This document shows positions 24,847 to 64,000 of a stretch of 64,000 nt of DNA, in pieces. Each line of letters begins with the position of its first letter. Position 1 is the first letter of the stretch. The notes below the pieces were generated by a model. It had not been told where the DNA came from and ran no database searches. It saw only the letters and a list, made by a program, of their open reading frames with translations. The DNA comes from a virus (lineage: Duplodnaviria; Caudoviricetes), in the IMG/VR virus record IMGVR_UViG_3300021255_002052, positions 1 through 64,000 of that record; one strand, written 5' to 3'. Made by a program: the position numbers and the translations under genes.

Positions 24847-25200
24847 ATGGAACTGAAACAAATCTTTTCATAGGAAATCGCTAATACCCTAATCGAAAAG
24901 GGATATCCGGTCGTCAGGATTGACCAGACAACTAGCAAGAAGCCGATCTTCTGTTTCGAACAGACGGAAGCCCTGAGCGCCGATCTGGACGAGGTATTCG
25001 GGCCCAAGAGGGTCACGATCACCGATCCAAAAACTGTTAAGCGCTTACTGGATAAGGGTTTCCACATCGTCGATATTAAGCCGAACAGGTTCAACCACGA
25101 CAAGACGGTTTTCTTATTCGAGGATAGTGAACTACTCGAAACTGCACTGAAAGAAGTGACGGATCACCCGGATGACGAAAAAGTTCTGAAGGAGGCGTAA
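24847..25200 (+). CDS. hypothetical protein with a duplicated small domain; first gene with an in-frame TAG
   Basis: AAGGAG SD; MELKQIFS(TAG 24871)EIANTLIEKGYPVV...KRLLDKGFHIVDIKPN, open to TAA. Confidence 0.75.
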
Positions 25201-25202
25201 TA

Positions 25203-25841
25203 ATGGAAGGAATAGATGTCCTGACTTTACCAATTCTGGGGTCTGTCTCGGATCTCTGTCCTCTCCCGAGTCCGTCAGAAGTTACTTACTGGCAGAATCG
25301 TGGTTCTCGGATCTTCACAATCGACTATGAACTTGATGATGATTATAACGTAATGGACCTTCAGAAGGCGATCTTACAGATCAATTATGATGATATGAAT
25401 AAGCCGGAATCGGAACTTCAGCCCATTATCATTCAAATACATAGTTTTGGTGGAGATCTCCATCAGGCCTACGCTATAGCTGATACTATCCTTACTAGCA
25501 GAACTCCCGTGATTACGGTAGCTGCGTCAGTCGCGATGTCGGCTGGCTTCATTATTCTAATAGCCGGACATAAAAGGTACGCTCTTCCGCACTCCCAGGC
25601 ACTGGTACACGCTGGATACGCGGCTTTCGAAGGAACTGCTTCCGAAGTTGAACAGGCTCAGAAGAACTATAAGCGTATGCAGTCCGTGGATAAACAGTTT
25701 GTCCTGGAACAGACGGAGATCCCGGAATCTACCTATAATCGGCAGAAGAATAAGGATTGGTATCTGTCCGTCGATGATATGCTGAAATATAAGGTGATCG
25801 ACGGAGTGGTAGAAAAGATTACAGATATTTTCAAGATATAA
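25203..25841 (+). CDS. clpP: ClpP-like protease subunit
   Basis: PIIIQIHSFGGD, AMSAGFIILIAGHKRYALPHSQALVH, DWYLS. Confidence 0.85.
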   Translation: MEGIDVLTLPILGSVSDLCPLPSPSEVTYWQNRGSRIFTIDYELDDDYNVMDLQKAILQINYDDMNKPESELQPIIIQIHSFGGDLHQAYAIADTILTSRTPVITVAASVAMSAGFIILIAGHKRYALPHSQALVHAGYAAFEGTASEVEQAQKNYKRMQSVDKQFVLEQTEIPESTYNRQKNKDWYLSVDDMLKYKVIDGVVEKITDIFKI

Positions 25842-59800: not shown

Positions 59801-62800
59801 GATTCTGATGGACTGGTGACAGACGTACAGGCAGTCTCTGATCTTGTTGCGGGAATGACTTTTGATAATCTTTCCGGACTTGGAACATATTTCGATACTA
59901 TAGCAGAAAAAGCGAGAATTAATTCTAACGTATTTGATGATTTACGCAAAAAGATAATTGATCTTTCGGATTTATCATCTGTAAGCTGGGAAGATATTAT
60001 AGATTCTGACGCTTATAAGAGTTTGTCTGGTTACACGAGAACAAAACTAGCTGAAACTGGAGCTCCGACAGAGGTCCTAGCTAAAATTATACTCAGAGGA
60101 GATATTGATCTCAATACTCTTGAGCAGGATATCCAAGAAGGTATCGCCCAGATCGAACACCGGAAATTCTAGGCTCAGATATCTGTACTGACGACTTACA
60201 ACTCCGACATTTCGTCTATTAGAGATGCGGAGGCCGAAATCGCTCAGGGTACGATGACACCGGACAAAGCCCTCTCTCTCGCTTCTAGCTTACCGGAAGT
60301 GGCAAAGGCGGCGGAAGAACTAGGCCTCACGTTTACAGATATGAATGCCGACGAGATCTTAGACGATGTCGACAAACTATAGGTTGCACTGGCTAATGCG
60401 AAATTTGACAGACTAGAACGACTCCTATCTGATAAAAATGTCGGTCGAGCCGAGAAACTCTCTGCCATAGCTAACGCGGATCTTTCCGGCAATACGCGTC
60501 AAAATGATTATCTCGCCAGAGGAGGCCACGTACAAAACGAATGGTTAGCTAATAGGCTAGCTGGCGAAGGCGAATTTGAGAATACATACGGTTTTGGCCG
60601 AGAGTCTGCGTACCAGACGGTGGTCGGCGTTTAGATGATGCTCGACGCAGGGTCTTTAGAAAATACCGAAGCTTCTGTAGAATAGGCATTCTCGGCACTA
60701 GAGCCTAAGGTCGCGATCTAGTTGGCGGAAGGTTCGATCAGAGATATTGAACAGCAGATTACCACGATCTCACAGGTCGCTAGCGACTAGATGGCAAACG
60801 GATACGTCACTTAGGAGCAGTTAAATACCCTGAAAGCTGCCGGTATCGATTATTCGCAGATGCTCGAAGTCGGTGCTAAAGGCTGGAAACTGAACACGGA
60901 TAAAGTCCAGGAATACGAAGATGCTCTCCGTGCGGTTCAGGTGGCTCAGTCGAAACAAACCGAGAATATCGCGAAAGATAGGGTGGCTGCCTTAGATAAA
61001 TAGATGAAGGAACTCCTCGGAGAAGGATCGGGGTCAGCTAAAATAGCAGAAGAAGCCGGTAAGAACGCCGCGAATAATTTTGTCAGTGGCATGTCTAGCG
61101 AGCTCGAAACTGCGGCCAGAGGTGGAACTACAGCATACGGAAAAGCAGAGCAAGAAACCGCTAAGACAGATATCGCGGAGCGCATTCAGGCTGGTGCATC
61201 AGCACAGGATCTATTGGATGAAGGATACGGATTCCAGGATCTGGCGGCTGCTCAGAATTATCTCGATCTTTCTGATGCCAGGGCTGAGCTGGAAGAAACA
61301 ATATAGAAGCAACAGCAGTACCAGATGGCTACAGCGGCCTCTATAGATATAGCCAAACAGTTCAGCGAAGCAAGTTCTGCGGCCAACGACCGTGATCTGG
61401 CAGAGACTGTTAGCGGCGGAGTTAAAGGTGCGTTAGAGACGAAGAATAAGGGCTGGTGGGGAGATAAGAATCTTCAACAGTATGCGAAGTTCTTTGCGGA
61501 TAAAGACACACCTCTTTATAAGGCGCTCGATGAATTTGAATCATCTTGGAATAACGTCTGGTCGAAGTATTACGGTTCCGATGGAGAGATAACCGACGAC
61601 GGAGTTCAGAAGTTTATTTAGGACTCAGTCGGAAAAGGACTTACTCTCGATTCGGAAGTTGGGGAAGATGGTTATACGTTCGACTGGCTCTTAAAAGACG
61701 TTAATATAGATGAACTGGCTAAATCCTGGGATACTAGTACCGAAAATATTATCGCTCTTCTCTCCGCTTTTGAAGACACTCGTTCTTGGGATCAAGTTGA
61801 CTGGAGCTCGATATTTGGAAGCACTGACGAAATAAGTGATTCTGCTTCTGCAATGGACGAGTACATAAGCAATTTAGAGATTCTTCAGAAATATAATCCT
61901 GAAATGGATATGGGGTAGTACTTCTAGACGGCAGCGGAAGGACTCAAAACTCTCTAGGCGAGCGATCCAAATGCAGACATACAAGGGTACGTAGATAGGC
62001 TTAATCAATTAGCGCAATTGACTGGTTAGGATTATGTGGTAACAGTTACAGACAGTGGCGATTTCGAAGTCGTCGACTCGAAGCTCGCTGAAATGCATGA
62101 AAAGATTGATCAAATCAATAAGAGCAATATTACCATTAACGCAGAAGGGAAAGTAGAAACCGATTCTGAAACAGAAAAACAATTAAATGCACTAGCCGAT
62201 TACGCAAACGGTGATGGCAAGGAGATGATGCTCAAGTGGGGATTTAAACCCGCTGAGAATGGTCAATTTACGCCGGAGGACTTAGCCAAGTAGATCATCG
62301 AGTTCCGCTGGAAATTTAGCGAAAAACCGGAAGTAGAACCTGGAGAAACTGGCAACGGTAAAGGATTTCATAGGGGTCCAGTAAAGAAAAATGCTAAAGG
62401 GGAACTCATAACCGGGGCTGTAGAATATACAGATTCGGGGGTAACCGAACCTGAAACCCATGTCATTGAGACAGAAACACCTACAGATCCGATGGAAAAC
62501 CTCAACAGTGGCGTAGATAATATATATAGCGGAATTGAAACAGCTAATGGATACCTGGCGACGATCGCAGGGAAAGCAGAAAAAGACTCTGAAAAAGATG
62601 AAGGATCAGAGCCTAAAACTGACGAGTCTGATACACCAAAAGACAATAGCGACAGACCTGATAAACATGGCCCAAGCACTACTAAAGAATATCGCGATCA
62701 ATTAGTGTCGGAAGGTAAAGTCGCAGAGGATACATCAACCGTATTTGAAAATTCAGTAAATGAATTATAGGAAAGCGCGAAAGAAGCCTACGAAGAAGCA

Positions 62801-64000
62801 CATGGTATCACAGAAGGCTTGCCATTAGTTTAGAATGCCATAAATGCAAATACATAGGCACAAGTTGATAACACCACCAGTGAAGAGTCAAAAGAGAACA
62901 TTCCTATCGATTTGCCGTATAATGAAGAGCCAGGTGTTGAAACAGGTTTACTTGGACTTACTCATCCTATCGGAGTTCCTTCATTTGGTCATGAGGTGTA
63001 TGCTTCCGAAAACGAAGGTGGTGATACAAGTTTCGTTGAGACCCCCACCGAAACCGAACAAACCGCTGAAAATGTATCTGTAAGTGGTCAAGTGGTTTAG
63101 GTCACAGATGATACCAACACTCCTGGCACTCTATCCAAAGGTGAGAGCCTTACATCGGAACAGAGATCGGAGTACTCTTCCACTGCCGAAACCCCAGAAG
63201 GTGAAGCATACGAGCCGGAATCTCAAACTTCTAGAGCAGTCATCAACGCAGACGTTGCTGAACTTAACGCTGATCTTCCTAACGAAACCGATCCTAATTA
63301 TCAGCCGCCTTCTGATGATTTCAATTATCGATTCATAAATCCGTCGAATCCTTTCACATACGGTCAAGCACCGCAACCCGCTCCGGGACAATCGCTCCCA
63401 ATGAATTAGGGGTTACAATTACAAACCGTCGAAGGGACTACCACACCGGGCGAATTATCCGCTTCTGAAGTTTCGGTAAGCGGCGGATCCGTAACAGTAT
63501 CTGGTCCAGTCGAGATACCTACGAGTACACCGACGGAGACTTCGACGTTCACTCCCACTCCTACCATTACTTCTGCCCCGGCTCCGGAAGCACCTACCAC
63601 TGAAGCGACTACGACGGTTACGGTAGAAGCAGACGTTACCCCAGCGGAAGAAGCCATAGCGGGGCTAGAGGATAAAACCGTAACAATTGGAGTATAGATA
63701 GAAACGCCGTAGCCAGAGGAGTTTTAGGGCGTTCTTGACCGAGTGGGTAATTCTGGTCCGCAGTCAGTATAGGTAGATGCATCTGTTCAAGATGGAGCGA
63801 CTGAAGGTTTATAGGAAGTTGAAAATAAAGCCAATGAGGTAGACGGCTTAAATCCGACAGTCACGGCAGAAACTTAGGATAACGCTAGTAGTGTTCTGGG
63901 CAATATAGTGAGTAGCGCGTAGGAAGTTGATGCTCAAACTCCGAATGTGGGCGTTGAAGCGACGGATAATGCGTCCTCTACTTTGGATAAGGTTAAAGGC
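47873..64000 (+). CDS. very large tape measure protein, more than 5,300 codons, runs off the window (TAG recoded)
   Basis: All 21 long tracked fragments lie in one frame and end at TAG; TP901-type core at about 56.0-57.1 kb (FDTAFTEMRKVS, LNKIGNDFSIS, VQDPNKVGAGARTIALRL, YKSTYEII, LLEKMAGKNRSN). Confidence 0.85.

Follow-up and report, generated by a model that had tools for sequence, protein, structure and literature searches.

The stretch analysed here (the window) is the first 64,000 nucleotides (nts) of the single virus contig IMGVR_UViG_3300021255_002052 in IMG/VR, hereafter W, which is 109,771 bp long and, according to CheckV, about 60% complete. On its + strand, a gene encoding a YonO-like single-chain RNA polymerase is followed by a late block of about 73 kb (24847-97659) containing the packaging, head, tail and lysis genes, in which sequence comparison supports well that TAG is a glutamine (Gln) codon. 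The early blocks, at 1-24.6 kb and 98.2-109.8 kb, are intact under the standard code (code 11). The contig encodes a tyrosine integrase, hence the phage is temperate. The stretch is present in cattle-gut metagenomes of several studies as well as in RNA libraries. W gave no match in a blastn search of INPHARED and its portal protein is only about 27% identical to those of known phages. Three relatives were compared throughout: L024, an ENA contig of 82 kb with a terminase 95% identical to that of W, and G001 (134 kb) and G002 (175 kb) from IMG/VR, which were fetched whole and have portal proteins about 71% identical to that of W.

Under code 11, the + strand past about 25 kb is broken into fragments, which fuse into long genes once TAG is read as a sense codon. 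The longest open frame has 919 codons under code 11; it grows to 7504 codons if TAG is translated and to 1032 if TGA is, and stays at 919 if TAA is. The late block then consists of 42 tightly packed genes and 22,436 codons, with 224 in-frame TAGs and neither TAA nor TGA in frame, and its genes end in TAA (24) or TGA (18). Because genes were called with TAG as sense, the restriction of stops to TAA and TGA is partly circular, therefore the spread of TAGs and the spacing of gene ends were also checked. TAGs are scattered along the genes with no accumulation at their ends (the last TAG lies within 12 codons of the stop in one gene only), and the TAA and TGA ends adjoin the start of the next gene, with typical gaps of -29 to +30 nts. 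TAG represents about a quarter of the Gln codons of the block. The terminase, portal and tape measure proteins are full length only with TAG read-through. These names, like those of the exonuclease and the endolysin, come from PHROG and Pfam matches of the read-through proteins, which also include virion, tail and fibre proteins. An earlier note made from the DNA alone (the original prediction) had described the terminase, portal, tape measure and other genes as interrupted by TAG and ending in TAA or TGA, which these counts bear out.

Assembly error is excluded as the source of the TAGs, since independent DNA assemblies from other studies, 95-99% identical to the stretch, and RNA contigs reproduce the sequence, and L024 has the same pattern. 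It is also extremely unlikely that the genes are dead or that the host itself reads TAG as sense and is simply followed by the phage. The frames are open and conserved over thousands of codons, the early genes and the integrase gene avoid TAG, the phage carries its own suppressor tRNA, and standard-code relatives occur in Ruminococcus, Blautia and Lachnospiraceae assemblies.

The residue inserted at TAG was addressed by comparison with relatives. With curated W genes as queries, Gln was found opposite 54 of 84 W TAG sites in the loci L001 and L002 (41 CAG and 13 CAA). In a likelihood test, the residues opposite TAG were scored against the substitution profiles of all 20 amino acids; once antisense matches had been removed, the margin of Gln over the second-best residue exceeded 50 log units with either relative. 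In the comparison of all open reading frames (ORFs), antisense frames, in which CTA/CTG changes between leucine codons mimic TAG/CAG changes, were removed by keeping the best-scoring frame. In the terminase, the W TAG columns at amino acids (aa) 87 and 462 hold Gln in 120 of 120 database homologs, and three other TAG columns hold it in 116, 112 and 83 of 120. Compared with L024, the W TAGs face Gln at 27 of 41 sites and TAG at 9, and L024 has TAG opposite a W Gln 13 times. Furthermore, the TAG at 26726, in the YonJ-like exonuclease gene, is CAG (T>C) in the DNA assemblies of two other studies (runs X2 and X6). The alignment of TAG positions to homologs thus revealed the Gln preference that the original prediction had proposed. 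Another residue in W is hardly credible. A long extra arm in the suppressor tRNA could suggest Ser, Leu or Tyr, and the relatives G001 and G002 read TAG as glutamate (Glu), but the W TAG sites align to Gln and not to any of these four residues, two of those in the terminase fall in invariant Gln columns, and the tRNA has a Gln-type acceptor end and an extra arm that matches the Gln anticodon loop instead of a Ser-type arm.

The suppressor tRNA is a key part of the system and was absent from the account given by the original prediction. The gene at 28566-28657, about 3.7 kb inside the recoded block, is the sole tRNA-CUA found on the W contig. The acceptor end is of the tRNA-Gln type (A1.C72, G2-C71 and G73). 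The tRNA departs from the class I shape with a short variable loop, and its length of 92 nts is due to an extra arm of about 22 nts, whose loop, CUUUGAA, is a copy of the Gln anticodon loop. The L024 tRNA is that of W with a compensatory change from A6-U67 to C6-G67. A scan of IMG/VR with the anticodon arm retrieved 33 distinct long-armed tRNA-CUAs, of which 26 carry (C/U)U(C/U)UGA in the extra arm. In an alignment of 28 tRNAs, the cloverleaf pairs covary strongly, the base 3′ of the acceptor stem is G and the 1:72 pair is never GC or CG (UA in 9, AU in 5, GU in 1 and a mismatch in 13). For the extra arm, a model with a 7-nt loop, C-U-(C/U)-U-G-A-A, is backed by three compensatory pairs in this alignment versus one for a tetraloop model, and only the wobble position of the loop triplet varies (UUG in W, CUG in most others). 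A Ser-like tRNA, as the long arm would suggest, clashed with the Gln signal and was given up.

From these sequences, the glutaminyl-tRNA synthetase (GlnRS) of the host would load tRNA-CUA with Gln, and the extra arm may present a spare Gln anticodon loop replacing the G36 lost from the real anticodon. A true GlnRS is found in four of five genomes carrying standard-code prophage relatives, with GatB present as well. Because of this, a route through the glutamyl-tRNA synthetase (GluRS) and GatCAB is not needed; a non-discriminating GluRS with GatCAB was dropped as a cause of the Gln/Glu difference between lineages. Genes for a release factor, GluRS or GlnRS were not found in G000, G001 and G002. 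In E. coli, supE, an ordinary class I tRNA of 75 nts with a tRNA-Gln body and a CUA anticodon, inserts Gln at UAG, GlnRS tolerating the changed anticodon. The W tRNA differs from supE by an added arm of 7 bp, in the loop of which the Gln anticodon loop is repeated, and no paper on such extra-armed Gln suppressors was found in the searchable literature. Between the suppressor tRNA and the neighbouring tRNA-Asn, two small antisense ORFs with in-frame TAGs (28707-28898 and 29018-29182, both on the - strand) are preceded by near-consensus sigma-70-type promoters at 28956-28928 and 29202-29174.

A different meaning of TAG is found in the sister lineage, studied through loci L005-L020 of G001 and G002 and the database proteins P0005-P0012, P0027 and P0123. 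TAGs of G001 and G002 lie opposite a W Glu at 32 of 68 and 39 of 76 sites, respectively, where the W codon is mostly GAA, two changes away from TAG. The likelihood test placed Glu ahead by more than 40 log units. In the terminase, the TAG columns of these genomes hold Glu in 113-117 of 120 homologs, and in the polymerase they hold Glu in 111-115 or Asp in 110-113 of 120. Between none and two TAG sites are common to W and either genome, while G001 and G002 have 32 in common. Their tRNA-CUA is without the extra arm and has a strong 1:72 pair, a larger D loop, a 4-nt variable loop and A73, features that resemble those of a phage tRNA-Glu(UUC). The alignments and the tRNA together point firmly to a lineage that reads TAG as Glu through a tRNA-Glu-like suppressor. 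Database records are affected as well. The G002 polymerase is recorded as protein P0123, in which every one of the 12 TAG sites is given as Gln. Nine other terminase records carry Gln in 3-12 of 24 columns where Glu is conserved, and for one of them translation of TAG as Gln was confirmed.

In the terminase tree, W and L024 form a clade that is sister to the one containing P0027, P0005, G001 and G002 (support 100/99). Outside both clades are standard-code relatives with no in-frame TAG, from Ruminococcus sp. AM36-2AA, Blautia, Lachnospiraceae and Clostridia assemblies; the relative in Ruminococcus sp. AM36-2AA is a prophage, given its location on a 499-kb contig. It is probable that a single clade of SPbeta-like gut phages gave TAG two meanings, Gln in the W lineage by an extra-armed tRNA that shows a spare loop to GlnRS, and Glu, by a tRNA-Glu-like suppressor, in its sister, which comprises G001, G002 and no fewer than nine database terminases; standard-code relatives are placed just outside. 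No report of TAG reassigned to Glu in phages was found in the searchable literature.

The boundary between the two codes in W is sharp. In the early blocks, only 9 of 77 ORFs end in TAG and most of these are doubtful, a count made on the approximately 60% of the genome in hand. On the + strand, apparent TAG-containing ORFs at 2513-4848 were rejected as signs of upstream recoding, as they mirror, in antisense, a series of - strand genes arranged head to tail. The polymerase gene contains no TAG where about nine would be expected at the late-gene rate, the L024 copy has none either, and the W protein aligns over 97-100% of its length with database homologs. The first in-frame TAG, at 24871, lies 322 nts after the polymerase stop and is codon 9 of a gene (24847-25200) with a strong ribosome binding site and a homolog in L024 that is 73% identical. 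The N-terminus of its product, MELKQIFS[TAG]E, aligns with MELKNIFSQD of L024, in which the TAG boundary lies at the same place. Hence the original prediction was accurate in placing the first TAG about 320 nts past the polymerase gene, in a real gene, and in describing the long genes up to 24549 as free of internal TAG. In the approximately 60% of the genome in hand, early genes are not recoded as the late genes are, the early blocks and the integrase gene being standard-coded. Beside the integrase gene, a small xis-like ORF (contig positions 99551-99730, - strand) is among the very few early genes that end in TAG, and suppression at this codon would add 25 codons, reaching into the integrase start.

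The gene preceding the boundary encodes a polymerase with a DFDSD motif that aligns on the DNDGD of SPbeta YonO. A blastp comparison with YonO gave an E-value of 1e-3 over 538 aa, and a 17-sequence profile (A3) compared with YonO by hhalign gave a probability of 91.7% and an E-value of 8e-7. No sequence match was found in the PDB, nor in the local Pfam copy, which lacks Yon-family models. The W polymerase is, on sequence and profile grounds, a distant homolog of YonO, as the original prediction had it. The genes that follow are colinear with SPbeta, in the order yonO-yonN-yonJ-yonG-yonF-yonE...yomI...yomC. Matches to SPbeta yonJ, yonN, yonG, yonF, yomI and yomC were obtained in order by tblastn of W proteins, and the L024 orthologs carry the Pfam marks of YonJ, YonG, YonD, YonB and YomW. 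Transcription of the SPbeta late operon is carried out by YonO and starts a short distance past the yonO gene (Forrest et al. 2017, PMC5467207). From the YonO homology, the shared gene order and this precedent, it is a fair inference that the W late operon likewise begins after the polymerase gene, from where the polymerase would transcribe the late block starting just past its own gene.

The original prediction held that the code boundary is the boundary of YonO-dependent transcription, so that late expression would be locked twice, by the phage polymerase and, separately, by amber suppression. Part of this stands: a real boundary follows the YonO-like gene by 322 nts and is kept in L024, and the start of the late operon there would match SPbeta. 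However, the polymerase gene of the sister lineage has 12-14 TAGs, so the code boundary is not tied to the polymerase across the family. Two independent locks are unlikely on other grounds as well. The tRNA gene is located within the block presumed to depend on the YonO-like polymerase, which makes it more likely that the polymerase and suppression steps act in series. A consensus scan found no separate + strand promoter for tRNA-CUA, and a single RNA-library contig, spanning 24632-29272, covers the first late genes together with the tRNA. RNA contigs leave most of the polymerase gene without cover and begin at 24632 (X4) and 24826 (X12); because such contigs cannot show transcript ends, the cover gap and the differing starts are no evidence of a transcript start. 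In addition, genes for an exonuclease and a homing endonuclease are among those recoded, and TAG is absent from several late genes. In place of two locks, a serial chain can be proposed, in which the polymerase would produce the late RNA including the tRNA, the tRNA would allow TAG decoding, and decoding would let the virion and lysis proteins be completed. Any late transcript that arose by chance in a lysogen, or in the first phase of infection, would be translated only into truncated proteins.

Such an arrangement is a serial cascade at most, and a passive origin is a live rival. TAG may drift in from CAG wherever the suppressor tRNA is abundant, that is, late, and be purged from genes needed earlier, in which case the block pattern would be a by-product of timing without regulation. 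TAG and CAG interchange freely among W, L024 and other strains, late genes differ greatly in TAG density and several contain no TAG, and the boundary lies elsewhere in the sister lineage, all of which agree with such drift. So does a weak signal in the first part of the block: the six genes between the polymerase and the suppressor tRNA (24847-28523) have 5 TAGs in 1,098 codons (4.6 per 1000), about half the density downstream of the tRNA (10.3 per 1000), with the same trend in L024. On the other hand, the combination of standard-code integrase and early genes with recoded lysis and structural genes recurs in unrelated recoded phages (Borges et al. bioRxiv 10.1101/2021.08.26.457843), which suggests selection, and drift leaves the TAG share of a quarter of the Gln codons unexplained. 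A purely passive origin is thus a tentative alternative, somewhat doubtful as it stands.

As a whole, the best explanation, to which we give high confidence, is that W is a temperate siphophage of the SPbeta type infecting Clostridia of the cattle gut, in which two codes are used block by block, TAG is read as Gln, presumably by means of tRNA-CUA, and late transcription and decoding may be linked in a serial cascade. Several observations weigh against it. The polymerase gene itself is recoded in the sister lineage, with 14 TAGs in G001 and 12 in G002. The class-II-like extra arm of tRNA-CUA would by itself suggest Ser, Leu or Tyr, and the GlnRS element U35 and G36 is not matched by the CUA anticodon, which has A36, the UUG triplet being located in the 7-nt loop of the extra arm. 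The ClpP-like, HU-like and aminotransferase genes and a 307-aa gene of the late block have no TAG, and the endolysin gene has only one; hence translation is not uniformly gated. Finally, about 40% of the W genome is absent from the contig and may include a second suppressor tRNA gene, a gene for a release factor or early genes that are recoded.

Recoding of TAG to Gln (code 15) has been described in crAss-like, Lak, Garnet, Topaz and phAss-1 gut phages (Borges et al. bioRxiv 10.1101/2021.08.26.457843; Peters et al. PMC9523058; Babkin et al. PMC10607447), and Borges et al. state that TAG to Gln and TGA to Trp were the only changes they saw in phages with a code unlike that of their host (bioRxiv 10.1101/2021.08.26.457843). 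W resembles these phages in reading TAG as Gln mainly in structural and lysis genes, with standard early and integrase genes, in carrying its own tRNA-CUA and no synthetase, and in having standard-code Firmicutes as predicted hosts. It differs from them by belonging to an SPbeta-like family with a YonO-type polymerase, by the spare Gln anticodon loop in the extra arm of its suppressor and by a sister clade that appears to read TAG as Glu. Block-wise dual coding was found with Mgcod in crAss-like phages (bioRxiv 10.1101/2022.06.29.495998), in which, as in W, contiguous blocks use either the standard code or one with a reassigned stop codon; W is from another phage family and host phylum, and the edge of its block adjoins a phage polymerase gene. 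Similarly to SPbeta, W is a large temperate siphophage with a distantly homologous polymerase of the DxDxD type and a corresponding gene order (polymerase, HU-like, exonuclease, YonG, terminase, portal, YonD, YonB, ..., tape measure, ..., endolysin). In contrast, SPbeta uses the standard code throughout, identity between the two is 20-33%, and YonO-dependent late transcription, known from SPbeta, would apply to W by analogy. The split TAG-to-Gln code is therefore of a known kind, and W adds to it the extra-armed tRNA, the SPbeta-like context with a YonO-type polymerase and, most of all, a sister clade that reads TAG as Glu. Judging from the alignments, what would be new is that two sister clades of a single phage family give TAG different meanings, Gln and Glu, with family members that keep the standard code branching just outside them.

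The main features of the contig are listed in Table 1.

Table 1. Features of contig W from the polymerase gene to the integrase gene (contig positions; the window ends at 64000)
Feature	Coordinates	Strand	Evidence and remarks
YonO-like single-chain RNA polymerase gene	21799..24549	+	916 aa without TAG, ending in TGA; the last gene compatible with code 11 ahead of the recoded block
Terminator-like hairpin between polymerase gene and first recoded gene	24623..24643	+	Predicted by consensus scan
First recoded gene, DUF5659-like, 117 aa	24847..25200	+	TAG at 24871; L024 homolog carries 2 TAGs
ClpP-like protease gene, no TAG	25203..25841	+	PF00574 E 7e-25; PHROG head-protease matches
YonJ-like exonuclease gene, 2 TAGs	26057..27271	+	phrog_284 E 1e-53; tblastn SPbeta yonJ E 8e-19
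HU-like (YonN-like) DNA-binding protein gene, no TAG	28215..28523	+	PF00216 E 1e-16; tblastn SPbeta yonN E 1e-5
Amber suppressor tRNA, anticodon CUA, 92 nt	28566..28657	+	ARAGORN; Rfam 51 bits
tRNA-Asn (GUU), neighbour of suppressor tRNA	29337..29410	+	tRNA scans
YonG-like gene, 7 TAGs	29435..30715	+	tblastn SPbeta yonG E 1e-8; L024 ortholog PF27269 YonG_N
Terminase large subunit gene, 9 TAGs	30699..32774	+	phrog_2
Portal protein gene, 5 TAGs	32771..34324	+	phrog_2739 E 5e-87
YonD-like gene, 2 TAGs	34763..36301	+	phrog_3313; L024 ortholog PF27290 YonD_N
YonB-like virion gene exon 1, 2 TAGs	36957..37375	+	Exon-joined frame; length as the uninterrupted 366-aa YonB-family gene of L024
Group I intron, 1156 nt	37376..38531	+	Rfam RF00028; spliced RNA contigs
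Homing endonuclease ORF in group I intron, 4 TAGs	37923-38501	+	PHROG GIY-YIG-type matches; NUMOD3 motifs
YonB-like gene exon 2	38532..39210	+	RNA contig joint
Virion gene, 413 aa, 6 TAGs	40703..41944	+	phrog_5251; 63-65% identity to G001 and G002
Tape measure gene, 7494 aa, 96 TAGs (69 in window), stop TAA	47873..70357	+	PF10145 aa 2783-2992; phrog_4211 aa 2692-4673; tblastn SPbeta yomI E 7e-22
Class-V aminotransferase gene, no TAG, inside late block just before endolysin	95063-96196		
Endolysin gene, 1 TAG	96196-97659	+	PHROG/Pfam
Tyrosine integrase gene, no TAG	98230-99489		

The YonB-like gene is interrupted by a group I intron, detected with Rfam at 37366-37735 (61.9 bits versus a threshold of 50). 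In RNA contigs of two studies, 37375 is followed directly by 38532, whereas the DNA contigs contain the intervening sequence; the RNA joint reflects the splicing of the intron. The base before the 5′ splice site is U and the intron ends in G. Joining the exons gives an open frame, and the gene is intron-free in L024. In other strains (runs X2 and X6), insertions of 1295 and 1045 nts are located at 31307/31308 and 30997-31014, in the terminase gene and the gene before it, and in G002 about 1.4 kb of sequence interrupts the terminase. W lacks these elements, which are probably additional mobile introns or inteins.

The W tape measure gene, at 7494 codons, is longer than that of SPbeta (2285 aa) and that of Thermus phage P23-45 (5002 aa), a phage with a long tail. 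Recognisable homology starts only at about aa 2550-2700; no family match was found for the N-terminal 2,500 residues or so, nor tandem DNA repeats in the gene. In the early blocks, a second ClpP-like gene is present on the - strand (103287-103847), and three tRNA-like genes (14979-15066, 15295-15378 and 15877-15990) have inserts of 14-48 nts in or near the anticodon loop. Two of them score 41 bits with Rfam. With introns allowed, ARAGORN gives the calls Met(CAT) and Thr(GGT).

The choice of code has direct consequences for annotation. Code 11 shatters the virion genes of W, and a blanket use of code 15 is right for W and would be wrong for the sister lineage. If the two meanings of TAG hold, public code 15 translations put Gln at hundreds of Glu sites, and stop-codon capture in phages would be fast, repeatable and extend beyond Gln and Trp. 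Gln and Glu sister clades beside standard-code prophages would then form a natural series on stop-codon capture. An extra arm with a spare loop offers a testable answer to the question of how an anticodon-reading host synthetase loads a stop-codon reader. Lastly, the link to a YonO-type polymerase may provide a simple cascade model for the control of late genes in temperate phages.

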